From an uncultured Bacteroidota bacterium (GTDB lineage Bacteria; Bacteroidota; Bacteroidia; UBA4408), in contig CAIMGI010000187.1 of assembly GCA_903840505.1 (NCBI GenBank), positions 18,812 through 82,811 of the forward strand: a DNA stretch of 64,000 bases, read 5' to 3'. Below the pieces are notes generated by a model. That model worked only from the letters and a program-made list of their open reading frames with translations, did not search any database and was not told the DNA's origin. Positions 29,799 to 42,149 of the stretch are shown piece by piece. Each line of letters begins with the position of its first letter. Within the stretch, counting starts at the first letter, position 1. The translations under genes were made by a program, and so were the position numbers.

Positions 29799-30848
29799 AT
29801 GGTGTTATCTACAAAAGTAAGCATAATTTCAAGTTTAAGAAAGGGATTGCCCCGAATATCGGTTTTTATGTTTTTGCTGTGTTGTTCGTGCAAGCAAAAT
29901 AAGCTGGACGTAAACGTTTCCAACATAAAACTTTCGGTTGATTGCAAGCGTTTCGATTATGATTTGTTTAGCCTCAGATGCCCAGTAGAAGCTGCCGGTA
30001 TAAATACTTTAAGAAATAAGTACGGAAATTTTGTTGACCGATTTGGTGCAAACATCATAAAAATTGGTTCTCCTGAGTCGCCTTCTTATGCAGCTAATTT
30101 GAGTAATTTTTTATCCGACAACGATATGCGTACTGTTTATGGGGATGTTAAAAGTCAATACCCAAATACAGATGAATTAAACAAAGAGCTTACCGATGCT
30201 TTTAAACATTACAAATATTATTTCCCAAATAAAACTATTCCGCAGGTAGTAACCTATGTTTCGGGTTTTAATTATGCCATTGTTGCCGATGATACTACGT
30301 TGGGAATTGGCTTGGATATGTACTTAGGAGCAGATTATAAATATTACCAACTGATGCAGTTGCCAAAATATAGAACAGCATTAATGCGCAAAGAGCGCAT
30401 TGCCATTGATGCGCTCAAATCGTGGATTTCAACTGAGTTTGAAGCCGACATTACAAAGACCGATTTGCTTTCACAAATTATTCACGAGGGTAAAATTATG
30501 TATGCCTTGGATGCTTTGTTTCCTGCTGCCCACGATTCACTTAAAATGGGCTATTCGAAAAAGCAAAACGATTGGGCAAAAGTGAGTGAAGCTCAAATAT
30601 GGGCATACTTTATTGATAAAAAATTATTGTTCTCCACCAATTATGGAGAGAATATGAAATTCCTGAACGATGCTCCTTTTACTTCGGGTTTACCACGCGA
30701 TTCGCCTCCTAAAATTGGCGTGTGGTTGGGTTGGCAAATAGTGAGGGCCTATATGAATACTAAATCCGACATTTCGTTGGAAGCATTGTTTACTGAAAAA
30801 GACGCACAAAAAATACTTTCACAATCAAAATACAAACCTGCTAAATAA
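29799..30848 (+). CDS. gldB: Gliding motility lipoprotein GldB
   Basis: A ~330-aa lipoprotein (lipobox LLCCSC) immediately upstream of a gldC-like gene, as in the F. johnsoniae gldB-gldC operon. The start is uncertain because the gap to the divergent gene is only ~21 bp. Confidence 0.6.
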   Translation: MVLSTKVSIISSLRKGLPRISVFMFLLCCSCKQNKLDVNVSNIKLSVDCKRFDYDLFSLRCPVEAAGINTLRNKYGNFVDRFGANIIKIGSPESPSYAANLSNFLSDNDMRTVYGDVKSQYPNTDELNKELTDAFKHYKYYFPNKTIPQVVTYVSGFNYAIVADDTTLGIGLDMYLGADYKYYQLMQLPKYRTALMRKERIAIDALKSWISTEFEADITKTDLLSQIIHEGKIMYALDALFPAAHDSLKMGYSKKQNDWAKVSEAQIWAYFIDKKLLFSTNYGENMKFLNDAPFTSGLPRDSPPKIGVWLGWQIVRAYMNTKSDISLEALFTEKDAQKILSQSKYKPAK

Positions 30849-30856
30849 AAGCTATA

Positions 30857-31195
30857 ATGAAAACTTCCGAAATAAATTTCACGATTAAATTAGATCAAAA
30901 TAACCTACCCGAAAGCATAGATTGGGAAGCAACCGATTCGGGTGTGGATGGTAAAATACCAAGCAAAGCAGTAATGTTAGCCGTGTGGGACCCAAAAGAA
31001 AACAACACCTTGAAAATAGATTTGTGGACAAAGGATATGATGGTGGATGAAATGAAATTGTTTTTTCATCAAACCTTGCTAAGTATGGCGGGCACCTTTG
31101 AACGTGCTACAGGCGAAGATAAAATGGCGGGAGATATGAAGGATTTTTGCCAGTATTTTGCCGAGAAAATGAATTTGTTGGAGAAGAAGAATTAG
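30857..31195 (+). CDS. gldC: Gliding motility-associated protein GldC
   Basis: 112-aa cytoplasmic protein. Its conserved blocks (IDLWTKDMMVDEMK, FFHQTLLSMA, DFCQYFAEK) are characteristic of GldC, and it lies 8 bp after gldB. Confidence 0.65.
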   Translation: MKTSEINFTIKLDQNNLPESIDWEATDSGVDGKIPSKAVMLAVWDPKENNTLKIDLWTKDMMVDEMKLFFHQTLLSMAGTFERATGEDKMAGDMKDFCQYFAEKMNLLEKKN

Positions 31196-31349: not shown

Positions 31350-31356
31350 ATTTTAG

Positions 31357-31430
31357 TGGAGAATATCGGATTCGAACCGATCACCTCTTCACTGCCAGCG
31401 AAGCGCTCTAGCCAAATGAGCTAATTCCCC
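31357..31430 (-). tRNA. tRNA-Ala (anticodon GGC)
   Basis: The reverse complement folds as a canonical 74-nt cloverleaf, with acceptor GGGGAAT/ATTCTCC, anticodon loop CTGGCAG and a T-arm with TTCGAAT. CCA is not encoded. Confidence 0.85.
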
Positions 31431-32135
31431 TTACAATCACCGAAGCTTTAGCATAGGTGGTTTATAGTTATTATAAAGAGCCCTAATGATATTGCACTTA
31501 ATTTGCCCAAAAGTATATAAAATATTGGAATTTAACGAGATTTCGAAATAAACGTAAGTGCTTGTATATTTGGTTTCCTGTACAACGTTCTGTCTATAAA
31601 AACACTCGAATTCCACATTCCATAACAGTTCATCGGAAAGGGCAACGACTCCCCCAATACAGTAAAAACCAATAATCGCTTTTGCACATAATGTCGGAAA
31701 TTGTGGTTGCCTAAAATCAAACACTCGAGCAAGAGTAGAACACGTATTGGGATTTATGGAACAAATTACGAATTGGTTATTTATACACTCAGTAGGAATA
31801 TTACGAGCAACTGGAATAACAGGGCTTATCAATTTAACCTGCAATTTATTTAGGTATGAACAAACTAAATAAGACTTTAAGCGCAATACCTTGTCGGGTA
31901 GAGAGATAGTTAGGCAGGTAAATAGATAGGGAAATTATGACGATGAAAGAAAAAACATTGTATTGTTGAAAAACAGATTACAAAAAATCGTTTAACGGTG
32001 CCTGCAATTCTTGTTCAAATCTATAAAAAAGAATACTTTAAGCCAATCTGTATGAGATTTTTTATTATATTTAGCTTTTATTTTTTAAAAGGCAAAGCAT
32101 TTTCAGTTTGCATAAATAATAAAACGGTAGGGTAT

Positions 32136-33125
32136 ATGACAAAAGTTTATCTTTTATTGTTATCAATTTATTTCCTTTCTATCACAACTGTTGTGGCGCA
32201 GGATTCTATAAAAAAGGCAGCTCCCCAATCTGCCGGTGTTGTAGCACAGGATTCTATAAAAAAAGGAGCACCCCAACCTGCCGATACTTTAAAAAAATCT
32301 ATTGTTCCCGGTTCAAGTAAAACTAATGTACCTGACACTACCGTAAAAAGGGGTTCAACTATTGATGCTGGAATAGGGGTTGCTGTTTCGCCAAGCACTT
32401 TGCGCTTTAATTTGAAACCGGGTAATGCCCAAACAAAAACCATTAAGGTTACTAATGATACTAAAGTAGCGAAGAAATTTAATGTTACCGTACAGGAATT
32501 TAGAGCAAGTGAATTAGGGAAACCCGTTTATTCAAAAATCGGGGAAAGTAAATTTGGTCTTGCAAAATGGTTAAACATTTCTCCCTCCTATATTGAATTA
32601 AGAGCAGGTGAGAAAAAAAACATTAATGTGCAGTTGGATATACCCGATGTTGATAGTGCGGCAATAGCAGGTTGGGTAATTATAGCCATTGATGAAGTAC
32701 GCGATAGAGCCCCTTTAGACCAGTCATCAACGAATAAAAACACCCTTGCGCTTGGAATTGTTCCTTCCATAGGATTTGGAGTGTATGTATTTCAAAATCC
32801 TCCCGAAGTAAATAGCCATAATGTTGAAATTACAAGCTTTAAGTATAACGAAACGGGGAATAAAAGAATTGTTGAAATGGAATGTAAAAATATAGGAAAC
32901 GGAATAGGTTTTTGCAGTAATTATTTGGAGCTAATTAATTTAACGACAGGTGAACAAACAAAGTTGCCAATAAAGCAGGTAACAATACTACCAGGATTTG
33001 TAAGAAAGTTTTATTTTGAGTTGTCTTCTACTTTAAAGCCTGGCAAATACTCGGCTGCGGGGGTCCTTGATTTTGGAAGCAAAGAGTATGTACAAACTGC
33101 TGAGCTAGAATTTTTAATACAATAA
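32136..33125 (+). CDS. Secreted two-Ig-like-domain protein, putative periplasmic chaperone of the adjacent fibre operon
   Basis: Signal peptide (MTKVYLLLLSIYFLSITTVVAQ) and a duplicated 16-aa linker. Two ~110-aa beta-rich domains follow, with PapD-like strand patterns (VSPSTLRFNLKPG..TKTIKVTN....FNVTVQEF). The chaperone role is inferred. Confidence 0.4.
   Translation: MTKVYLLLLSIYFLSITTVVAQDSIKKAAPQSAGVVAQDSIKKGAPQPADTLKKSIVPGSSKTNVPDTTVKRGSTIDAGIGVAVSPSTLRFNLKPGNAQTKTIKVTNDTKVAKKFNVTVQEFRASELGKPVYSKIGESKFGLAKWLNISPSYIELRAGEKKNINVQLDIPDVDSAAIAGWVIIAIDEVRDRAPLDQSSTNKNTLALGIVPSIGFGVYVFQNPPEVNSHNVEITSFKYNETGNKRIVEMECKNIGNGIGFCSNYLELINLTTGEQTKLPIKQVTILPGFVRKFYFELSSTLKPGKYSAAGVLDFGSKEYVQTAELEFLIQ
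32198..32293 (+). repeat. 48-bp direct tandem duplication encoding VVAQDSIKK(A/G)APQ(S/P)A(G/D)
   Basis: gttgtggcgcaggattctataaaaaaggcagctccccaatctgccggt / gttgtagcacaggattctataaaaaaaggagcaccccaacctgccgat. Confidence 0.8.
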
Positions 33126-33276: not shown

Positions 33277-34074
33277 ATGAAAAAAATAATTTTTATAGCT
33301 TTAGTAGCAGCAGGGTCAATTCTAGCATCTAATTCTTATGCGCAGTTAATAGATGAAAAAAACGTAACTATTACAATGGATTTGCAACCAATTTTGCAAT
33401 TGAACATGACTACTCCTGATCAAATTGATTTCGTATTTGATGAAATTCCTGAATACATTGGAGGTATCACTAAATACGCAGGAACTGTTCTTAAAGTAAG
33501 CTCTTCTGTATCTTGGGATCTTTATGCAGCAGCTAGTTCCAATGCTCATTTGGGCGGTGTAGGAGATATTTGGGATCAACAAGTTATTTATGGTGCAGGT
33601 ACTTCTGCTGGTGCGAGAAGTGACTTACCCCTAAACTTGCTGGAAATGCATCAATTTGGACCAAACAATTTTCCTGGTACAGCCACAAACTTTGCCGACT
33701 ATAGCGGAGCATTCCGCCCGGTATCCGGTTTAGGTACTAACGATGGACAAAATAACGTGTATGTAAGCGCAGCTGGTACACCTTATGTTTCCCCTCCTGA
33801 TGGTGAGAAATACATTAATGGCGGTGAAGCTGCAATAGCAACAGCTTTGGTACCAGGGGGGTCTTATTTGACAACACTTTTTCCAGTTGGAACAAGTGAT
33901 TACTATTTTGTAATTGACTACCGTGTCCTTCCGGGCTTACCTGCTATTTTTCCACTTGCTTCTGATAATACAGGTGCTGTAAATGACTTAGTAACTTCAG
34001 GTGCTGTAGGTGATTATGCACAACCTGGTGTTTACACTATGGATGTGAAATATGTTTTAATTGAAAATCAATAG
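33277..34074 (+). CDS. Secreted fibre-subunit-like protein A (paralog of next gene)
   Basis: Signal peptide. The N-terminus has alternating hydrophobics (NVTITMDLQPILQL), a conserved IDFVFD...IGGI block and a C-terminal DYRVLPG...VKYVLIEN beta-strand. Length is 265 aa. Confidence 0.45.
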   Translation: MKKIIFIALVAAGSILASNSYAQLIDEKNVTITMDLQPILQLNMTTPDQIDFVFDEIPEYIGGITKYAGTVLKVSSSVSWDLYAAASSNAHLGGVGDIWDQQVIYGAGTSAGARSDLPLNLLEMHQFGPNNFPGTATNFADYSGAFRPVSGLGTNDGQNNVYVSAAGTPYVSPPDGEKYINGGEAAIATALVPGGSYLTTLFPVGTSDYYFVIDYRVLPGLPAIFPLASDNTGAVNDLVTSGAVGDYAQPGVYTMDVKYVLIENQ

Positions 34075-34134
34075 TCCCTTTATATAAACCCCTCGAATCG
34101 TTTTTGTTTCGGGGGGGTTATTAAATTATAGTTT

Positions 34135-34758
34135 ATGAGGCTGTTAATAGTAATTCTCTTTTTAATAGTGACCAAACCTGTTTTTTCTCAATGCCCCCTT
34201 GTGGTTACTGCAGAATGTGCAGGAGTTCCTATGAGTGGCATTATTGTAAGTGCCAGCCAATTAGAAAATATAGATTTTACATTTGATAGTTTTTCAAAAA
34301 TAATTGGCGGTATCGGCATGAGTGGAAAAACACAATTGCGAGTGAAAGTACAAGCAAATACAGCTCTTTGTAAGTGGGGCTTGTATATGACCATTGATAA
34401 TATTGGCGCAGTAGGTGCAACTGATTGGAGTAGCAATGTTATATACGGGACAAGTGGTAACCCCCCCGGGTTGGATTTATTAAAAGTAGAAGTATATAAT
34501 GGCTGTAACACACCCATTAATAATCGTGTTTATCAAGCGTTTGTTACCAATGCGCAAATGATACCTATAATAGAAGATCTAGGGGCCATTAATGTAGCGG
34601 GTTCTTGTGTCACTAATGTGAATGGGCCTGGCAATTATATAACAAATTATAATGAATTCTCTTTTACGGTTGATTATCGAATTATTCCTTCCCCATCTTT
34701 AAATATAACACCTGGTCAATATTCAGTAAAAGTCCATTTTTGTTTAGTAGAAAATTGA
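34135..34758 (+). CDS. Secreted fibre-subunit-like protein B (paralog of previous gene)
   Basis: Signal peptide and four Cys residues. It shares the IDFTFD...IGGI block and the C-terminal DYRIIP...VKVHFCLVEN strand with the previous gene. Length is 207 aa. Confidence 0.45.
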   Translation: MRLLIVILFLIVTKPVFSQCPLVVTAECAGVPMSGIIVSASQLENIDFTFDSFSKIIGGIGMSGKTQLRVKVQANTALCKWGLYMTIDNIGAVGATDWSSNVIYGTSGNPPGLDLLKVEVYNGCNTPINNRVYQAFVTNAQMIPIIEDLGAINVAGSCVTNVNGPGNYITNYNEFSFTVDYRIIPSPSLNITPGQYSVKVHFCLVEN

Positions 34759-34762
34759 GTTG

Positions 34763-37700
34763 ATGGAGAAGCTGCTAAATTCAAATATCAAAACACACAC
34801 TTTAGGAAATTTGCTATTGTATAAATACATATTTATCCTTCTTTTTTCATTATTTATTCTTCCTTTTGAGATGAGATCTCAAACACAAAATCAAAACAAT
34901 AAAAAGGTTACTGCTACTTTCAGCTCGCAAGTAATAGAGTTAAAAACAAAATCAGAATTGATATCAAATGTTTTGAAAGTAAAAAACATTAACGGTACTC
35001 CAAAAGATTTTTACATAGACGTTAATTGTCCGAACGATTGGAAGGTTCTTAATTCCACAAAACAGATATATACTGTTAATGCGGGTGACTCCATATACAT
35101 TCCCGTACGCGTCATTCCGTCTCTTTTAACATTTAAAGGCGGTTCGCTGTATATGATAAATGTTTTTTTAATTGCAACTATTGATGGAAAGCAATTGGAT
35201 AATACTATGTTTAAAATTTCTAAACCAAGCAAGAGGAGTTGGGCATTGGATGTATTACCCGAATCCCGCATTTATTTTTTAAATGATCACAAAAAAGCAC
35301 CATTTAGTGTTTCTGTTGCTAATAATGGCGAAGATAAAGAGGATATTAGTCTTTTTATAAATCATGTTGGACAGTCGCTCAATATTGCAGATACAGCAGG
35401 CCAAGAAGTTAAAAAACGTTTTTTTGACATTACGCTGAACCCTTCAAATGACACAACGTTAAAATTTTTGGCAGATATAAAGGATGTGCCTCGAAACTTT
35501 AAACGAGTTGATCTGGATAACCATAACCCGAAAGAAGCTTTTGAAACTAGAAAGTATACAATCTTTTTTAGAGCAACGGAACCCAAAACACGAAAAATAA
35601 AAAAAAGCGACACTAAAAAATCAGTTGCCGTTGCAACTAAAGTCGTCTCCGTAACTAAAAAAATTAATAAAACTCATGCTGTAAGGTACAGCAAAACACT
35701 TGACTTTATTCGCCTCTCAGATAATGTAATTGTAAACAATTATCGTAGCTCAATTATCCCAGTTTCAGTAGAAGCTAATTTTCATAATATTTTTGGTTTT
35801 CAGCCCATTGGCAATACAATTATTCGTTCAAATAAATTACTTAGCCCCACTTCGAGTTTTAACTTTTTATTACAAAATAATTTTTCCTATTATTCTCCTG
35901 AAAAATTTCTTGCCAGGGGAAACAGCTCATTTTATTTAGGTTACTATTCTAAGCATTGGGATTTTAGTGTAGGAACAAATGCAGGTTTGATGGGTATTGG
36001 AGGCTCCACAGCTATGAATAGCGGCAATGGATCTGCAGCAAGTTATCATACAAAAAGGTTCAGAGCATCGGCTTTTTATAGTAGAGGCCCTATCTTAGGG
36101 TCACCTATAAACCATAGTTATGGAGCAGGGGTAAGTGGCAATTTTTTTAATAGACTTACCTTATCAGCAGGCTCAAGTCAAAGTCGATCTTTGATTCTTC
36201 CATCGGATGCCAGTTTTGTTTTTGCACGAGCCAATTACAGAGCAAATAAGTTTTTGAGTTTATTTGTTGGTTATAATTATCGTGTATCAAGAGCTAACAT
36301 AAACGCCCCTGGTCAGATTACTACAGAAGGCAATTTTTTTAATGGCGGCTATAGTGCATTATTCCTTAAACAAAGGCTGAACCAATCAATGTCTGCCAAT
36401 TTTGGTGATACGTATTATGCGAATGTAAGGCTCAGATCAAAATTTTCTATTGTTTTATCTAATAAGTTTTCTCCTAAGTCAAGAGCCTACTTGCTTCGTA
36501 TGCGTAACAGTTATTTTCAGTCGCAAGATTCACTTAAGGGGTTTTCGAAATACGATCGCTTAGCATTCAGCAACTCTTTTTCTTATAGTAAATCAAGCCA
36601 AAAGAAAGGATCTTTAGTTCCAAATTTTTTTTATAATTATTCTCAACAAGCGCTTGCTAAAATGCATTTTAGAGGCATAGGGTTCAATTCGTTTTATGGT
36701 AATCAAGAAAAGAACACGAGAGCTTCTGTTTCATCAATTGTAGGATATAATCGTTACATAGATAGCGCTATTACAAAAGAGTTGTTTAGTTTACAATTTT
36801 ATGGAATGGTTCAATGGCAAACATTCACGATGAATGCAAATTATTATTATGGTCCGGCCGGAATTTATGGTGCCAAAAGAGTATTGTATAGCACCAATAG
36901 TTATCCTCAAATTTTTAGAACATCTCTTTCATACGAATACTTATTTAAAAATAGACGTTTTGTATTAAGGCTTCCCCTTAGTTACGCCTATAACAATACT
37001 GCTTTTTCTCATAATATAAATATTAACCCACAAGTATATTTGTTTACTTATAACGATTGGCGCCTAAGATTGGATTTGAATTATTCGTACTTAAGAAATA
37101 ATCTGCAAAAACAATTTCAATACACTTCACAATCAACATTTGAGGATGATTTAGATAAGCCAACGGTGGGCAATGTCTTTACTATTGGTGTAGGAATAAA
37201 AAAAGATTTTGGCATTCCTATACCTAAAAAATGGTCGAAAATAGCATACGGCAGTCCGACATTTTTAGCGTTCCTTGACTTTAATGGCAATAGGGTAATG
37301 GATAAGGAAGAGGCTCTTTTAGAAAACATTGTGATTAGGGTTGATAATTATGAAATATTGACCAATGAAAAAGGTTCGGCCTTTTTGACAAATATGCCTG
37401 CCGGAAGATATTCTTACAATGTATTTTCGTTGGTTGACCTTGGCGGATGGTTTTATCAACATTTGGATAGTTTAGATATTGACGGCAGAAAAATATATTA
37501 TATCCCCTATACTCGCGGAGTTAAAGTTTTTGGTAATGTGGTTATTGACCGAGAAAAATATTCGAGCGATGTTGTAAAAGATTTAGATATTTCTCGCATA
37601 AAGCTGTCTGTTATAGACACTGCTGGCAAAACACAAACCACATTAACAAATACAAAAGGGGAATTTTATTTTTATGTGCAATATGGAACGTATGTATTAA

Positions 37701-38290
37701 GTATGGATCAAAATGTATTGGGCGAAAAGTTTACATTGGCCCAAAATAATATTAAATTAGAGTTGGAGGAAGGTATGGATAGTTATTTTAACTCATTCTA
37801 TGTGATTGAAAAACACAGAAAGGTCAAGAAAAAAATATTCGGAGCTGATGGGAAATATGAATTGGTAGAGGTGGATCCTGAAAATAATAAAGCGTACCCA
37901 GCCAATAACAACAGAAATCCAAACAATAAGATTTTAAATTTTGATCAAAAACAAAAACAATTGGATTCATTAATTACCCAATTGAATATGTTAAATAATA
38001 AATCACCTAACCGTGCAGATCTACGTTTAATAGTAATAATTAAAACACAAAAATTGGCAACAGAATTAAGTTATGTTTTTTATATAAAGCTTGCCGAAGT
38101 GCCAAAAGGCGTTGCTCCCGAAGCTGCTTTGTCTGATTTGTTGAAGAAAAACAACTTGAAAGGATCGTTAAATATGGATGGTTCAATTACCTATACTGCC
38201 GGGGACTTTAAAACGATAGCCGAGGCTGAAAAAGAATGTTTGAAATATATGAAAGCGGGGCTTACAAAAGCGACCATTGAAAAAAAATGA
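34763..38290 (+). CDS. Large outer-membrane beta-barrel protein with usher-like domain order (N-terminal Ig-like domain, barrel, two carboxypeptidase-regulatory-like domains, SPOR-like C-terminus)
   Basis: The N-terminus has a hydrophobic signal or anchor. The central ~450 aa are Y/S/N/G/F-rich with alternating amphipathic strands (SFYLGYYSKHWDFSVGT, LSLFVGYNYRVSRANI). Two CarbopepD_reg-like beta-sandwich domains follow (IVIRVDNYEILTNEKGSAFL..., IKLSVIDTAGKTQTTLTNTKGEFYF). The C-terminus looks like a SPOR/RNP domain (YTAGDFKTIAEAEKECLKYMKAGL). Confidence 0.45.
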   Translation: MEKLLNSNIKTHTLGNLLLYKYIFILLFSLFILPFEMRSQTQNQNNKKVTATFSSQVIELKTKSELISNVLKVKNINGTPKDFYIDVNCPNDWKVLNSTKQIYTVNAGDSIYIPVRVIPSLLTFKGGSLYMINVFLIATIDGKQLDNTMFKISKPSKRSWALDVLPESRIYFLNDHKKAPFSVSVANNGEDKEDISLFINHVGQSLNIADTAGQEVKKRFFDITLNPSNDTTLKFLADIKDVPRNFKRVDLDNHNPKEAFETRKYTIFFRATEPKTRKIKKSDTKKSVAVATKVVSVTKKINKTHAVRYSKTLDFIRLSDNVIVNNYRSSIIPVSVEANFHNIFGFQPIGNTIIRSNKLLSPTSSFNFLLQNNFSYYSPEKFLARGNSSFYLGYYSKHWDFSVGTNAGLMGIGGSTAMNSGNGSAASYHTKRFRASAFYSRGPILGSPINHSYGAGVSGNFFNRLTLSAGSSQSRSLILPSDASFVFARANYRANKFLSLFVGYNYRVSRANINAPGQITTEGNFFNGGYSALFLKQRLNQSMSANFGDTYYANVRLRSKFSIVLSNKFSPKSRAYLLRMRNSYFQSQDSLKGFSKYDRLAFSNSFSYSKSSQKKGSLVPNFFYNYSQQALAKMHFRGIGFNSFYGNQEKNTRASVSSIVGYNRYIDSAITKELFSLQFYGMVQWQTFTMNANYYYGPAGIYGAKRVLYSTNSYPQIFRTSLSYEYLFKNRRFVLRLPLSYAYNNTAFSHNININPQVYLFTYNDWRLRLDLNYSYLRNNLQKQFQYTSQSTFEDDLDKPTVGNVFTIGVGIKKDFGIPIPKKWSKIAYGSPTFLAFLDFNGNRVMDKEEALLENIVIRVDNYEILTNEKGSAFLTNMPAGRYSYNVFSLVDLGGWFYQHLDSLDIDGRKIYYIPYTRGVKVFGNVVIDREKYSSDVVKDLDISRIKLSVIDTAGKTQTTLTNTKGEFYFYVQYGTYVLSMDQNVLGEKFTLAQNNIKLELEEGMDSYFNSFYVIEKHRKVKKKIFGADGKYELVEVDPENNKAYPANNNRNPNNKILNFDQKQKQLDSLITQLNMLNNKSPNRADLRLIVIIKTQKLATELSYVFYIKLAEVPKGVAPEAALSDLLKKNNLKGSLNMDGSITYTAGDFKTIAEAEKECLKYMKAGLTKATIEKK

Positions 38291-38315: not shown

Positions 38316-39875
38316 ATGAAAAACACACACGTATGGTTCCTCCTCTTATTGCTTTTTACTAAAGTACTAGTTGCGCAACCTCAAAAGCCTATTAAGTTTA
38401 AAAAGACCACTTCCGGTTTGGAGTATGCTATCATTAAAAAAGGGCAAGGCAAAAAAGCGAAAATCGGGAATAGGATTTTTTTGAATTATTTTTCTAGAAT
38501 AAAACTCGATAGCATTTTTGATAGTAACAACAATAAATATCCATACAGTTTTATATTAGGACAAGGTGATGTTTTAAAAGGTTGGGACGAAGGTATTGCA
38601 TTGTTGAGTGAAGGGGATAGTGCTGTTTTTCGCATTCCTCCACAATTGGCATTTGGTGAAAAGAAAATTGCTAAGATACCTTCTAATACTACTTTTTTGC
38701 TTGAAGTAAAGATTTTAAAAGTAGAAGAAGCATTTTACGATGGAAAACAAAAAGACACTGTACAGCTTGCCCTTGGGTTAAAAAAGATTTTGATAAAAAG
38801 TAGCACCGGTAAACCTGCTAGGTCATTCATGGGTGTAACATTAAATTACACAGGATATTACATTAATGACAAAAAACAAAAAAGAATATTCGAATCTTCT
38901 TATGTTACTGGCTTGCCCGCATCTTTTCAATTGGGAACAGAGCGCTTTTTGAAAGGGCTGGATATTGGTATAGCAGGAATGAAGATTGGGGAAAAATCCA
39001 TTTTTATTCTTAGTCCTGAAATGTCGTATGGAACTAAACCTGCAGGAGAGGTGCCTCTTGGAGCAATAGTCTATTTTGATATAGAATTATTGGCAGTAAA
39101 CAATCCATTTTTTGATGCAAGCGGAAAGGATACTATTAAAACAAAAAGTGGCTTAGCTATTATAGTTATTGATCCGGGGGCAGGACCGTTAATAAATAGA
39201 GGAAATTATATTACGATGCATTATACAGGTTTTTTAAAAAATGGAGAAGGAAATAAAATAATATTTGATAATACCATTGAGAGGAAACAACCGGTTGTGT
39301 TCAGGCCAAATTCCCCCAACTTATTAAAAGGATGGACAGAAGCCTCTTTATTGCTTCGCAAAGGGGCAAAAGCCATTTTAATAATCCCTCCTCAATTGGC
39401 TTACGGAGACATAGAGTTATCAAGGGTTCCAAAAAACTCAACGGTTTTTTTTGATATTGAAATAACGAATGTAAGCGAACCATTTTTTAATGTAACCAAT
39501 AAAGATACGGTTACATTGAGCTCAGGCTTAAAATATATCGTTGCAGCCTATGGAGATGGAGTGCTACCAAATCCAATAAAAGCTTTTACGGGGAAAGTTG
39601 TGGTTGTAAATTATGTGGGATTTATTTTAGACTCTTTACGTAAGCCCATTGTTTTTGATACATCAATTGAAAGAGGTAACCCGCTTGAATTTAAACTAGG
39701 AGCAGGTAAAGTAATTAAGGGGATGGAAGAGGGTGTTTTAGGTATGCATATGGGAGAAAAAAGAAGATTGATTATTCCTGGGAACTTAGGATACGCAGAA
39801 AAAGGTATCCCACCGCTTATACCATCCGATGCTACACTTTATTTTGATATTGAATTAGTGAAGGTGTTAAAGTAA
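38316..39875 (+). CDS. Secreted FKBP-type peptidyl-prolyl cis-trans isomerase with four tandem FKBP domains
   Basis: Signal peptide, then four ~100-aa units each with FKBP signatures (GW.EG...L..G....IPP.LAYG......IP.N.TL.F.IEL). It lies 25 bp downstream of the fibre operon on the same strand. Confidence 0.75.
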   Translation: MKNTHVWFLLLLLFTKVLVAQPQKPIKFKKTTSGLEYAIIKKGQGKKAKIGNRIFLNYFSRIKLDSIFDSNNNKYPYSFILGQGDVLKGWDEGIALLSEGDSAVFRIPPQLAFGEKKIAKIPSNTTFLLEVKILKVEEAFYDGKQKDTVQLALGLKKILIKSSTGKPARSFMGVTLNYTGYYINDKKQKRIFESSYVTGLPASFQLGTERFLKGLDIGIAGMKIGEKSIFILSPEMSYGTKPAGEVPLGAIVYFDIELLAVNNPFFDASGKDTIKTKSGLAIIVIDPGAGPLINRGNYITMHYTGFLKNGEGNKIIFDNTIERKQPVVFRPNSPNLLKGWTEASLLLRKGAKAILIIPPQLAYGDIELSRVPKNSTVFFDIEITNVSEPFFNVTNKDTVTLSSGLKYIVAAYGDGVLPNPIKAFTGKVVVVNYVGFILDSLRKPIVFDTSIERGNPLEFKLGAGKVIKGMEEGVLGMHMGEKRRLIIPGNLGYAEKGIPPLIPSDATLYFDIELVKVLK

Positions 39876-40001: not shown

Positions 40002-42149
40002 ATGCCCAATATGAAAAAAGCCCTTATTCCTTTACTATTATTTTTTATTTTCTGTGAATTTTCAACCGCTCAAAATAAACTTTTTACCCTTGAAGAGGCT
40101 GTTCTTAAACAACGTGCTCTTGCACCTAAATCTTTAACGCAGCTTTCGTGGATTCCGAATAGCACAAATTATGTGTATGTTGAGAATGGTGTATTAACAA
40201 TTACCAATGCAGCTACTGAAAAAGTAATAGGAAAGGTCGCATTGGTGGATATAAACAAGGAATTGGCGAAATTGAAATCGGTTGACACGCTTCCGAATTT
40301 TTTCGGGATTGATTGGGACAATTCAAATGTATTAATAGTGAAAACAAATAATCAACAGTTTCATTATGATTTAACTGCCAATAAAATAATAGAACAACGC
40401 AGTAATTTATTTACGGATGTGACTGAAAATACAGACGAAGAACCAACCCAAAAATCTAGAGCTTATACAGTAAAAAACAATCTCTTTGTTCAGGCAAATT
40501 CAAAAATAACGCAGGTAACCAAAGATGAAAATGAGAATATTGTAAATGGAAAATCGGTTCACCGTGAAGAGTTTGGGATTTACAAAGGAACTTTTTGGTC
40601 GCCCAAAGGGAATTTCCTTGCTTTTTACCGAATGGACCAAACAATGGTGAAGGATTATCCCATTTTAGATTTTAGTGCCAATCCCGCAGAAAACAAGAAT
40701 ATCAAGTATCCTATGGCGGGTGGAATAAGTCACGAAGTAACATTTGGTGTGTACGATGTGAAGAAAGACAAAACGACATTTTTAGAAACAGGCAGTCCAA
40801 AGGATCAATATCTAACAAATGTTGCTTGGAGTAATGATGAGACAAAAGTATACATAGCTATTTTGAATCGCGACCAGAATCATATGATGCTGAACAGCTA
40901 CAATGCTACTACAGGAAAGTTTATTCAGACACTTTTTGAAGAGAAAGGTGAAAAATATGTTCAGCCATTACACCCCTTGGAATTTATTAACGACAATAAT
41001 TTTATTTGGCAAAGCGAACGGGATGGACACAACCACATTTACTTGTATGACATCAGTGGAAAATTAATAAAACAACTCACAAAAGGAAACTGGGAAGTGT
41101 TGGCTGTAAATGGTTTTGATGCTAAAGGGCAGCAAATTTATTTTTCAGCTTCAACGGAAAATCCTATAAATAAAGATGTATATAAAGTAGATCTAAAAAG
41201 TGGGAAAGTAGCACGCATAACAAGCGGAGAAGGAACGCACAATGTTGTGTTTAATTACAACAAAGAGTACCTCATAGACTATTTCAGCAGTACCACTGTA
41301 CCACGCGAAATTGCTATTGTGAATACTGTAAAGCCAGCAAAGAAAATAATATTTAAGGCTGAAAACCCGCTAAAGGAATACAAAACAGGCAAACTAAATG
41401 TATTCACTATAAAAACCGAAAACAACATCGATTTGTTTTGCCGAATGGTTAAGCCGGTTGATTTCGATTCTACAAAAAAGTATCCCGTAATTGTTTATTT
41501 GTATAATGGTCCGGGCGTGCGCCTTATTTACAATACTTGGCAAGCCGGTGGCGACCTTTGGTATCAGTATATGGCGCAAAAAGGCTTTATTGTATTTACG
41601 GTAGATGGGCGTGGTTCGGAAGACAGGGGTGTGGCATTTGAACAAGCAACTTTTAAACAATTGGGAAATATTGAAATGGTGGATCAGCTAAAAGGTGTGG
41701 AGTATTTAAAATCCTTGCCTTATGTTGACGCTAACAGGATGGGCGTTCACGGCTGGAGCTATGGTGGCTTTATGACAACATCGTTGATGACAAGACACCC
41801 GGGAGTATTTAAAGTTGGTGTAGCGGGTGGTCCTGTGATTGATTGGAGCTATTACGAAATAATGTATACCGAACGTTTTATGGATACACCGCAAACAAAT
41901 AAAAAGGGCTACGATGAATCGAATTTGTTAAACTATGCGGACAAGTTAAAGGGGAAGTTGTTAATGATACACGGTACAAATGATGATGTTGTTGTGTGGC
42001 AACATAGTTTGATGTTTATAAAAAAATGTGTTGACAAAAATGTGCCGATAGATTATTTTGCCTATCCCGGACATCTTCACAATGTGTCGGGTAAAGATCG
42101 CTTACACCTGATGACAAAAATTACAGATTATTTTATTACGAATTTGTAG
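40002..42149 (+). CDS. S9 family serine peptidase, dipeptidyl-peptidase IV-like
   Basis: Signal peptide, an N-terminal beta-propeller region and a C-terminal alpha/beta hydrolase with the GWSYGGFMT nucleophile elbow and the catalytic D/H region (HGTNDDVV...HLH). Confidence 0.85.
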   Translation: MPNMKKALIPLLLFFIFCEFSTAQNKLFTLEEAVLKQRALAPKSLTQLSWIPNSTNYVYVENGVLTITNAATEKVIGKVALVDINKELAKLKSVDTLPNFFGIDWDNSNVLIVKTNNQQFHYDLTANKIIEQRSNLFTDVTENTDEEPTQKSRAYTVKNNLFVQANSKITQVTKDENENIVNGKSVHREEFGIYKGTFWSPKGNFLAFYRMDQTMVKDYPILDFSANPAENKNIKYPMAGGISHEVTFGVYDVKKDKTTFLETGSPKDQYLTNVAWSNDETKVYIAILNRDQNHMMLNSYNATTGKFIQTLFEEKGEKYVQPLHPLEFINDNNFIWQSERDGHNHIYLYDISGKLIKQLTKGNWEVLAVNGFDAKGQQIYFSASTENPINKDVYKVDLKSGKVARITSGEGTHNVVFNYNKEYLIDYFSSTTVPREIAIVNTVKPAKKIIFKAENPLKEYKTGKLNVFTIKTENNIDLFCRMVKPVDFDSTKKYPVIVYLYNGPGVRLIYNTWQAGGDLWYQYMAQKGFIVFTVDGRGSEDRGVAFEQATFKQLGNIEMVDQLKGVEYLKSLPYVDANRMGVHGWSYGGFMTTSLMTRHPGVFKVGVAGGPVIDWSYYEIMYTERFMDTPQTNKKGYDESNLLNYADKLKGKLLMIHGTNDDVVVWQHSLMFIKKCVDKNVPIDYFAYPGHLHNVSGKDRLHLMTKITDYFITNL

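Follow-up and report, generated by a model that had tools for sequence, protein, structure and literature searches.

A four-gene cassette of freshwater Bacteroidota likely to encode a TLP-1-type tubular fibre and its chaperone-usher-like assembly system

Background

What do two adjacent genes for secreted, paralogous proteins make in an uncultured Bacteroidota bacterium, and with which machinery? The genes, here called A and B, lie in the window, i.e. the whole 64,000-nucleotide stretch of DNA that was analysed, between the gene for a chaperone-like protein, UP, and that for a large usher-like protein, BIG (Table 1). The question bears on TLP-1a and TLP-1b, 8-nm tubules from pond water whose cryo-EM structures appeared in 2024 (coordinates 9IKJ/9IKK) and in which the N-terminal beta1 of protomer n+4 completes the Ig-like fold of protomer n, a case of donor-strand exchange (PMC11494351). 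TLP-1 was reported as a homopolymer, and its organism, genes, operon and assembly machinery were not identified; the pond-water metagenome and mass spectrometry of that study gave no match, and its best AlphaFold match was a protein of a Flavobacteriales bacterium (PMC11494351). Later papers of the TLP-1 series hold nothing on organism, genes or assembly. Published as a showcase of cryo-EM-first discovery, TLP-1 has remained an orphan without an organism or an assembly route.

Here we present evidence that A is likely to be the major and B the minor subunit of a tubular surface fibre of the TLP-1 type, built by a chaperone-usher-like four-gene cassette; in the same joint reading an uncultured freshwater member of the Bacteroidota is, as the best explanation, the likely producer of the fibre. 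Through the window, the TLP-1 fibre family gains a defined and widely conserved set of four genes in freshwater Bacteroidota, and genetics can now be applied to where the fibre comes from and how it is assembled. For four large families now annotated as hypothetical, UP, A, B and BIG are offered as names.

Results and Discussion

Table 1. Features of the cassette and of the gene that follows it, in positions of the window
Feature	Position	Strand	Description
UP	32136..33125	+	Secreted chaperone-like protein, 329 aa; signal peptide, disordered low-complexity linker (~22-80), two beta-sandwich domains (80-329)
A	33277..34074	+	Putative major fibre subunit of 265 aa, homologous to the TLP-1a/b protomer
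Signal peptide of A	33277..33342	+	Residues 1-22; predicted cleavage between SYA and QLIDE
Donor strand region of A	33346..33387	+	Residues 24-37, LIDEKNVTITMDLQ; corresponds to beta1 of TLP-1
Hairpin	34089..34116	+	GC-rich, CCCCTCGAA...TTCGGGGGG, followed by a U-rich tail; 15 nt after the stop codon of A
B	34135..34758	+	Putative minor subunit paralogue, 207 aa; signal peptide residues 1-18, cleavage between VFS and QC; six cysteines, no A-type donor strand
BIG	34763..38290	+	Usher-like outer-membrane protein (predicted), 1175 aa; signal peptide, then sandwiches, linker, barrel, transthyretin-like domains and tail
Barrel of BIG	35684..37219	+	Residues 308-819 of the model
FKBP-type protein	38316..39875	+	519 aa, four peptidyl-prolyl isomerase domains; FKBP_C E=3e-87, 4 matched stretches; 25 nt after BIG

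A is a homologue of the TLP-1 protomer

Over its mature length (residues 24-263 of 265), A matches chain residues 2-236 of PDB 9IKK (E=8.6e-45) and 9IKJ (E=1.6e-43) and is 43% identical to the TLP-1 protomer, the protomer sequences used for comparison having been read from density. Among the first 22 residues aligned with TLP-1b 16 are identical, and the stretch NVTITMDLQP of A aligns with the beta1 donor strand. As residue 2 of the PDB chain corresponds to L24 of A, residue 1 of the chain corresponds to Q23, which directly follows SYA at the predicted signal-peptidase site and is invariant across the A family. TLP-1 and A share the mature N-terminus, the donor strand beta1 and the strand at the C-terminus are highly conserved, and the host group of A agrees with the Flavobacteriales match of the TLP-1 paper; A of the window is nevertheless not the imaged protein. 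A metagenome scan with the TLP-1b sequence did not identify the imaged producer: no database relative of TLP-1b exceeds ~55% identity, with the exception of a 57-residue fragment at 72%.

We recovered 767 homologues of A, none of which is annotated. The best-conserved portion of the family is the stretch NVTITMDLQPILQL, in which A displays the alternating hydrophobic residues V30, I32, M34 and L36, and across the donor region D26, E27, N29, V30, T31, T33, M34, D35, L36, Q37 and P38 are invariant or near-invariant. In 76/76 homologues 29 residues separate the mature Gln from the F.FD block, with zero indels. Cysteine is absent from A, that of a lipobox included, and its family is nearly free of it. 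Not one of 51 family members matches a Pfam model at E<=0.01, the Fimbrial, SCPU and FimA/Mfa models included, and profile comparison of the A family with FimA of E. coli (hhalign) returns a probability of 0.8%. By inference from the homology to 9IKJ/9IKK at 43% identity, A is likely to be assembled through an N-terminal donor strand that completes an incomplete Ig fold, which has not been observed for A itself.

B is a paralogue without the donor strand

A and B align in a pairwise BLASTP comparison (E=4e-8, 24% identity) from the (Q/N)IDF(V/T)FD block to the C-terminal (L)(I/V)EN, and the two families are united by profile-profile comparison with hhalign (probability 99.7%, E=3e-25, 206 columns). 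The blocks common to both families are F.FD....(Y/I)GGI near the mature N-terminus and DYR(I/V).P and PG.Y....(K/H)(Y/F).L.E near the C-terminus, where A, as does B, ends in a conserved structural strand of the form L(I/V)EN(Q). B also matches PDB 9IKK directly (E=1.5e-4).

The strands that flank the groove are conserved in B as in A. The conserved N-terminal beta1 donor strand of the A type is absent from the B family, whose alignment displays at this place either a stub of ~15 residues or a Pro/Thr/Asn-rich C-x7-C loop. Of the cysteines of mature B (C20, C28, C79, C124, C158 and C203), C20, C79, C124 and C158 are invariant in the family, and C28 and C203 co-vary, being both present in 36 members, both absent in 17 and mixed in none. 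B is without a canonical lipobox, and the residue preceding the first Cys varies in the family between Q, P, H and L and is not G, A or S. None of 53 members of the B family matches a Pfam model at E<=0.01. Because the acceptor groove is kept and the donor strand is absent, B would sit solely at a chain end with its groove filled by A. We accordingly regard B as a putative chain-end subunit, i.e. a tip or an initiator, an inference in which the state of the groove and the disulfide pattern rest on alignments alone; B has never been seen in a fibre.

The initial annotation, made from the sequence alone, had proposed two open reading frames of 265 and 207 aa encoding secreted paralogues, and both points held, the coordinates and lengths being exact and the paralogy being borne out by the alignments above. 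Its reading of the alternating hydrophobics at the N-terminus of A as donor-like also held, as this is the same strand as the beta1 donor of TLP-1. The two shared motifs that it described held in part: in the N-terminal motif, given as I.GGI, the correct spacing is FD, five residues and IGGI, and the spacing of the C-terminal motif differs between A and B because of a 23-residue insert in A relative to B. The count of four cysteines in B failed, and the absent donor strand of B was not foreseen. The absence of a T9SS tail and of a lipobox from both proteins was confirmed by inspection of the sequences and by Pfam and NCBIfam searches, in which neither A nor B showed a T9SS C-terminal domain or matched any model at E<=1. 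The SCPU- or DUF-type Pfam families that it suggested found no match among the 51 A-family or 53 B-family members. Homology to enzymes or other non-fibre families, which it had named as a refutation, was not found for A or B; nor was its other refutation met, a compact monomer without groove or extension, since the solved TLP-1 homologue has both an N-terminal extension and a groove. Its central proposal of paralogous major and minor fibre subunits is supported by the homology of A to TLP-1 and by the chaperone-like and usher-like neighbours.

UP has a chaperone-like fold and BIG may be usher-like in layout

The structure model of UP displays the two-domain PapD-like chaperone fold and terminates in a beta-strand at residue 328, with no C-terminal helix. 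At the level of sequence, the PapD_N and PapD_C models of Pfam match 0/53 UP-family members, comparison of the family with FimC of E. coli by hhalign returns a probability of 0.35%, and neither Arg nor Lys is invariant at any position of the family, which was the criterion applied for a chaperone anchor residue, residue-level structural equivalence being left aside. Searched against PDB sequences, the UP profile recovers weak C2 and WxLIP matches and nothing else. Identity of UP with WxLIP (DUF916 + DUF3324) was considered and rejected: its DUF916 score of 26.4 bits falls under the Pfam cut-off of 27.3, it lacks a C-terminal transmembrane helix and no WxL-domain gene lies nearby. Unlike the WxLIP of Firmicutes, UP belongs to a diderm host and has A, B and BIG rather than WxL proteins as neighbours.

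In the model of BIG, two beta-sandwich domains (residues 49-272) and a disordered linker precede a barrel of ~28 strands, which is followed by two transthyretin-like domains (833-1036) and an optional tail (1060-1175) with a helical part and a b-a-b-b-a-b unit. The best Foldseek matches of the model are the full-length ushers FimD and PapC, with low TM-scores to FimD (0.25-0.37). The barrel of ushers has 24 strands. An usher-type plug domain cannot be discerned in the model, in which loops between barrel strands reach at most 21 residues. The Usher model of Pfam (PF00577) matches 0/44 BIG homologues, hhalign comparison of the family with FimD of E. coli gives a probability of 0.5%, and a search of PDB sequences with the BIG profile gave no match. 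A representative search recovered 494 BIG pore clusters; a word-indexed homologue search gave 2 proteins. From the fold, the usher-like layout and the synteny we infer that BIG is the outer-membrane exporter of the fibre, both its localisation and its export function being predictions. As a separate observation, the tail of BIG is SPOR-like in the order of its secondary-structure elements, without a Pfam or PDB sequence match.

The cassette is conserved and its first subunit gene is followed by a hairpin

The gene order UP-A-hairpin-B-BIG is fixed in the window and in 80 Bacteroidota genome loci. B is found in 78/80 of these, BIG in 75/80 and UP in 70/71, and exactly one A together with one B occurs in 74/80. 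The same cassette is present in the metagenome contigs nearest to TLP-1b. Relative to the published account of TLP-1, the gene is here placed in a UP-A-B-BIG cassette with a second, donor-less paralogue.

The hairpin between A and B has a folding energy of -18.3 kcal/mol in the window. A hairpin at <= -12 kcal/mol occupies the A-B spacer in 56/60 loci (median -20, median z -7.3), with a sequence that differs from locus to locus; in control regions the same threshold was reached in 7/48 cases inside BIG, 9/46 after BIG and 21/79 upstream of A. B and BIG are separated by a median gap of 3 nt across loci. We consider it likely, as an inference from sequence, that the hairpin acts in intrinsic termination or attenuation and thereby fixes how much A is made relative to B plus BIG. 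In the pap and fim operons, too, the major-subunit gene is followed by a hairpin. As to promoters, none of UP, A and B in the window is preceded by the Bacteroidota -7 motif TAnnTTTG, which was found upstream of A in only 10/79 loci, and a sigma-70 scan showed no enrichment.

A proposed assembly route and its relation to known systems

As read from their sequences, all four proteins of the cassette would leave the cytoplasm through Sec and be cleaved so that the mature form begins with Gln. In the periplasm UP may keep the subunits competent for polymerisation, as inferred from its fold and the synteny. The groove of A would lie between beta2 (IDFVFD) and the last strand (VKYVLIE) and be filled by NVTITMDL of the A four positions along the helix, a step that is shown for the homologues 9IKJ/9IKK and inferred for A from 43% identity. 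On the evidence of its fold, usher-like layout and synteny, BIG is predicted to receive the chaperone-subunit complexes and to export the growing fibre, with its beta-sandwich domains in the periplasm at both ends of the barrel. By analogy with usher systems, B, whose N-terminus is the stub or a loop presumably stapled by a disulfide, may be the first-assembled subunit, i.e. the distal tip or nucleator. Finally, the hairpin after A and the tight coupling of B to BIG would yield far more A than B and BIG, again an inference from sequence.

The closest parallel is with the chaperone-usher pili of Proteobacteria (Fim, Pap, CFA/I, Csu/CupE), which have the gene set proposed for the cassette, of chaperone, major and minor subunit and outer-membrane pore, polymerise through an N-terminal donor strand as do TLP-1 and, by inference, A, and share with the cassette the two-domain PapD-like chaperone fold of UP; going by the predicted model of BIG, a barrel flanked by beta-sandwich domains may be a further common trait. 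In contrast to them, none of the parts of the cassette is detectably homologous in sequence or a member of their Pfam families, the TLP-1 donor comes from n+4 rather than n+1, resulting in a four-stranded tubule, B is a single-domain protein without a lectin domain, and the host belongs to the Bacteroidota. Several observations stand against the proposal: the TLP-1 fibre consists of four donor-strand-linked strands, the export of which by a single usher-like pore is hard to explain; no part of the cassette has sequence homology to Fim proteins, all hhalign probabilities being <1%; the BIG model scores low against FimD and shows no usher-type plug domain; B is absent from all fibres seen so far, its structure being inferred from alignments alone; and the identity between A and TLP-1 is only 43%, against sequences derived from density.

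A bolder reading, against which the balance tips slightly, is that the cassette represents an unrecognised, phylum-wide chaperone-usher-type pathway of Bacteroidota, whether an independent invention or the product of extremely deep divergence, which would make four-stranded hollow tubules in place of single-stranded rods, with B nucleating or capping them. As part of this reading, and with the same reservation, the pore of ~28 strands, being much wider than that of an usher, or several pores acting together, would export the four linked chains.

In this phylum the literature that we searched covers only type V pili and T9SS-dependent appendages, to which the cassette suggests adding a chaperone-usher-like pathway. 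Type V pilins are made as lipoproteins, matured by proteolysis and polymerised through a C-terminal strand. The type V pili (FimA/Mfa1) share the phylum with the cassette and are also strand-exchange fibres; A and B differ in lacking a lipobox and a FimA/Mfa Pfam match, and the structural homologue of A uses an N-terminal donor. Type V pilus identity was rejected for A and B on the first two grounds. Identity as T9SS cargo was likewise rejected, there being no C-terminal sorting domain in Pfam/NCBIfam searches at E<=1, as was the cyanobacterial tubular (CT) pilus, a separate family found only in cyanobacteria. The puzzles that the cassette raises are how a pore-based system assembles a four-stranded donor-strand tubule and what role the donor-less, Cys-rich B plays in it.

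Alternative explanations

The alternative that survives best, which we consider unlikely, retains the fibre and its machinery and makes B either a cell-proximal terminator or anchor, or a non-fibre assembly factor such as a plug or activator of BIG that would fill the pore until A arrives. In its favour, B is tightly coupled to BIG and not to A (the median gap noted above), and its position across the hairpin from A suggests a stoichiometry near that of BIG. Its conserved disulfides, themselves predicted, would fit a rigid domain that stands by itself, and in the long B clade the C28-C203 bond predicted beside the groove might allow the N-terminus to fill the groove of B itself. However, the last rod subunit of an usher system has to receive a strand from the terminator and B offers no such strand, the short B clade lacks the N-terminal segment, so that self-complementation cannot be general, and B conserves both groove-flanking strands, as does A.

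We regard as very unlikely that the fibre self-assembles outside the cell like TasA or the archaeal cannulae, with BIG no more than a secretion pore or an unrelated porin and UP an Ig-domain surface protein of WxLIP type acting as anchor or binder of the fibre. For WxLIP, partner binding at the cell surface through an inserted strand has been proposed (PMC10599100), sequence homology to Fim proteins is absent for UP, BIG and A, and donor-strand systems without a chaperone are described in the literature. Against this, the C-terminal transmembrane helix that WxLIP has is missing from UP, in a diderm any open-grooved subunit has to pass through the periplasm unpolymerised, and the strict four-gene synteny across the phylum, together with a Foldseek ranking that places ushers first, points to a dedicated machine.

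That A and B are secreted monomeric Ig-like adhesins or binding proteins sharing only the fold of TLP-1 is all but excluded: the identity of 43% is modest and there are no experimental data for the host organism, but the donor strand is the most conserved, indel-free part of the A family, the homology of A to TLP-1 is full-length (E~1e-44) and the chaperone-like and usher-like neighbours fit a fibre.

An FKBP-type gene adjoining the cassette

The FKBP-type gene downstream of BIG is possibly an accessory to the fibre system proposed here, its membership being uncertain. It adjoins the cassette in only 9/80 genome loci, but does so in 4/6 of the longer contigs of the clade nearest to TLP-1b.

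Two secreted paralogues, one of them homologous to the TLP-1 fibrils

The initial annotation had proposed that two neighbouring, same-strand ORFs, A and B, encode secreted major and minor subunits of a fibre. This interpretation is essentially right as a whole; the finding is real, and both ORFs lie exactly where they had been placed. A and B are paralogues, as claimed: BLASTP aligns them with 24% identity (E=4e-8) across the span from the (Q/N)IDF(V/T)FD block to the C-terminal L(I/V)EN, and comparison of the family alignments with hhalign (A1, 51 sequences, for A; A2, 53 sequences, for B) gives a probability of 99.7% and E=3e-25 over 206 columns. Each begins with a signal peptide ending before Gln, and the claim that both lack a lipobox and a T9SS C-terminal domain also held. 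The two shared motifs held only in part, the N-terminal one being corrected to FD-x5-IGGI and the C-terminal one being interrupted in A by a 23-residue insert, while the count of four cysteines in B failed, mature B having six.

Features of the cassette and its neighbours (window coordinates)
Feature	Position	Strand	Description
gldB + gldC	29799..31195	+	directly upstream of cassette
tRNA-Ala(GGC)	31356..31430	-	between gldC and cassette
149-aa ORF	31437..31886	-	adjoins tRNA-Ala
UP	32136..33125	+	329 aa, secreted, chaperone-like
UP linker	~32196..32375	+	UP residues 22-80
A	33277..34074	+	265 aa, proposed major subunit
E-K-N-V-T	33355..33369	+	A residues 27-31, donor-strand start
GC-rich hairpin	34089..34116	+	dG -18.3 kcal/mol, 15 nt past A stop codon
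B	34135..34758	+	207 aa, proposed minor subunit
BIG	34763..38290	+	1175 aa, usher-like, predicted outer-membrane protein
BIG tail	37940..38287	+	BIG residues 1060-1175, optional
FKBP gene	38316..39875	+	519 aa, four FKBP-type prolyl isomerase domains (E=3e-87), 25 nt after BIG
DPP-IV / S9 family peptidase	40002..42149	+	715 aa, DPPIV_N E=1e-80, after FKBP gene

No Pfam or NCBIfam model matched A or any of its 51 family members. Against PDB sequences, A has two strong full-length matches, 9IKK (E=8.6e-45) and 9IKJ (E=1.6e-43), in which its residues 24-263 align with chain residues 2-236. The two entries are the deposited structures of TLP-1b and TLP-1a, respectively, 8-nm helical tubules that have a 15-Å lumen and were observed by cryo-EM in filtered pond water (PMC11494351). 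In TLP-1 the strands beta2 and beta7 of protomer n take up between them the N-terminal strand beta1 of protomer n+4, which completes an Ig-like fold; this is donor-strand exchange (PMC11494351). A is homologous to this solved donor-strand-exchange fibre: identity with the TLP-1b model is 43% overall and rises to 16/22 over the first 22 aligned residues, and the PDB chains start at the position of A Q23, the predicted signal-peptidase site. The stretch NVTITMDLQP, flagged earlier as resembling a donor strand, is by homology the TLP-1 donor strand; it is the best-conserved region of the A family and lies at a fixed distance of 29 residues from the F.FD block in all 76 of 76 homologues.

Bacterial N-glycosylation sequons have the form D/E-x-N-x-S/T. 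The E-K-N-V-T of A fits this pattern, with N29 about 90% conserved and T31 invariant in the family; a purely structural cause of this conservation is possible.

The authors of the TLP-1 structures could not identify the organism, their own metagenome and mass spectrometry giving no match (PMC11494351); later papers of that series add nothing on the organism or gene of origin, and the literature searched gave no other paper citing the reference protein or describing such a system. The fibre type is already known structurally, and A adds a further relative. The literature searched has no description of the cassette, with its chaperone-like protein, donor-less minor subunit, usher-like pore and putative attenuator, which supplies the missing genetics of an orphan structure.

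B lacks the donor strand

B keeps both groove-flanking strands (IDFTFD and Y.VKVHFCLVE). The A-type donor strand is absent from its family in one of two ways: in one clade only ~15 residues separate the first Cys from F.FD, and in the other a Pro/Thr/Asn-rich C-x7-C loop replaces the strand. The A family is nearly cysteine-free; in the B family C20, C79, C124 and C158 are invariant, and C28 and C203 occur together in 36 sequences and are missing together from 17, no sequence having only one of them, from which we predict a disulfide between the N-terminal loop and the last strand. Since B could accept a strand but not donate one, it would fit only at the chain end whose groove A fills. Fim and Pap usher systems place the first-assembled, distal subunit at that end, and by analogy we infer that B is such a subunit. 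That B instead serves as a base anchor, as a plug or activator of the pore, or as a self-complemented monomer remains possible.

Predicted folds of the flanking proteins

The folds of UP and BIG are shown in the form of AlphaFold2 models. In the model of UP (input alignment of 53 sequences), residues 80-329 form two beta-sandwich domains (pLDDT ~95) after a disordered linker, and the predicted fold is that of the pilus chaperones. Structural comparison gave, in two unlabelled columns of figures, CfaA (13.6; 189), CsuC (12.4; 181), EcpB (12.0; 155), YadV (11.6; 168), FimC (11.3; 173), SafB (11.1; 175), CupB2 (11.0; 158) and PapD (10.2; 180). The UP family has weak Pfam matches in the PapD-like clan (WxLIP_PGBD, Cep192, MSP, ASH), and some JGI records already name its members 'P pilus assembly chaperone PapD'. 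No family member matched PapD_N or PapD_C, hhalign against FimC was not significant, and the family alignment has no invariant basic residue. The linker, predicted to be disordered, carries a near-perfect tandem duplication, VVAQDSIKK(A/G)APQ(S/P)A, and varies in length and sequence among homologues.

A representative search with BIG recovered 494 clusters, of which 136 reached E<=1e-30, and 54 of its sequences were used for the model (mean pLDDT 82). A signal peptide (1-~40) is followed by two beta-sandwich domains (49-272), a disordered Lys-rich linker (277-305), about 28 long strands (308-819) and two transthyretin-like domains (833-1036; CarboxypepD_reg, SdrD_B and SpaA matches in 24-32 of 44 homologues). 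In composition (13% Ser, 10% Asn, 17% Phe+Tyr) the strand region is that of an outer-membrane barrel, and short and long loops alternate in it. With the whole chain, the top Foldseek matches were to full-length FimD in pilus-assembly complexes (E=5e-13 to 3e-10, ~830-860 aligned columns), with PapC next (6e-10), both above LptD and TonB-dependent receptors. However, TM-scores are low (0.25-0.37), BIG has no sequence homology to FimD, none of the 44 homologues matches the Usher Pfam model, and no plug-sized insertion is evident in the model. We therefore call BIG usher-like in predicted layout and probable role, and not a member of the usher family. Its tail, two long helices and then a b-a-b-b-a-b unit, occurs in only ~20% of genome-locus homologues, though the TLP-1b-like clade has it too; in strand order it is similar to a SPOR-type peptidoglycan-binding domain, without any Pfam or PDB sequence match.

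A putative assembly pathway

The best-supported reading, which we regard as likely, is a chaperone-usher-like pathway building TLP-1-type tubules. All four proteins would be exported by Sec; UP would cap A and B in the periplasm, BIG would receive the subunits, and donor-strand exchange would polymerise them with B at one chain end. Physical interactions, protein localisation, the position of B and the manner in which four strands linked by donor exchange (n to n+4) would be exported jointly are all inferred.

By sequence, the cassette is not a member of the classical chaperone-usher families. A type V pilus is excluded by the lack of a lipobox, the lack of a FimA/Mfa model match and the N-terminal location of the donor strand. 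That A and B are T9SS cargo is rejected, as neither has the C-terminal domain.

The spacer between A and B holds a GC-rich hairpin. Counting hairpins at <= -12 kcal/mol, this spacer has one in 56/60 loci (median -20, median z -7.3), against 7/48 inside BIG, 9/46 after BIG and 21/79 upstream of A. Their sequences are unrelated from locus to locus, and a T-rich tail follows in 25 of the 56. This is consistent with attenuation by which far more A than B and BIG would be made, inferred from sequence alone; no promoters could be defined for the cassette.

Conservation and genomic context

A profile search across genomes, one for each species, found 187 loci, the best 80 of which served for synteny counts. 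B lies immediately 3' of A in 78/80 and BIG (~1000-1200 aa) immediately 3' of B in 75/80, with a median gap of 3 nt; UP (~290-330 aa) lies 5' of A, a median of 106 nt before it, in 70 of the 71 loci having enough upstream DNA. Short contigs explain most loci without B or BIG, and 74/80 have exactly one A and one B. All 80 come from metagenome-assembled genomes, and all but two of these bear the name of a Bacteroidota lineage (Flavobacteriales, Crocinitomicaceae, Vicingaceae, Salibacteraceae, Chitinophagaceae, Bacteroidales and others). The two exceptions, L054 and L062, are titled 'uncultured Bifidobacteriaceae' and 'Comamonas sp.', which look like binning or labelling errors given that all other loci are Bacteroidota.

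The cassette also occurs on metagenome contigs whose A-type protein is nearest to TLP-1b (51-55% identity). In this clade (L101:5302-7001, L110:4503-7001, L087, L107), UP ends 0.9-1.6 kb before A and not ~100 nt, and an extra gene may lie between them; two contigs have no UP match despite reaching 3 to 7 kb upstream.

In the window, gldB (349 aa, GldB_lipo E=9e-107) and gldC (112 aa, GldC-like E=2e-39) mark the host as a gliding, T9SS-bearing Bacteroidota. The ORF adjoining the tRNA gene is without support and likely spurious. The FKBP gene adjoins the cassette in 9/80 genome loci and in 4/6 contigs of the TLP-1b-nearest clade; its product is possibly a periplasmic folding helper for proline-rich subunits. 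There is no evidence that the DPP-IV / S9 peptidase belongs to the fibre system; its position is kept in near-identical metagenome contigs. Identical copies of the locus are present in ENA metagenome assemblies, and the gldB-gldC-cassette order is repeated in four ENA metagenome contigs.
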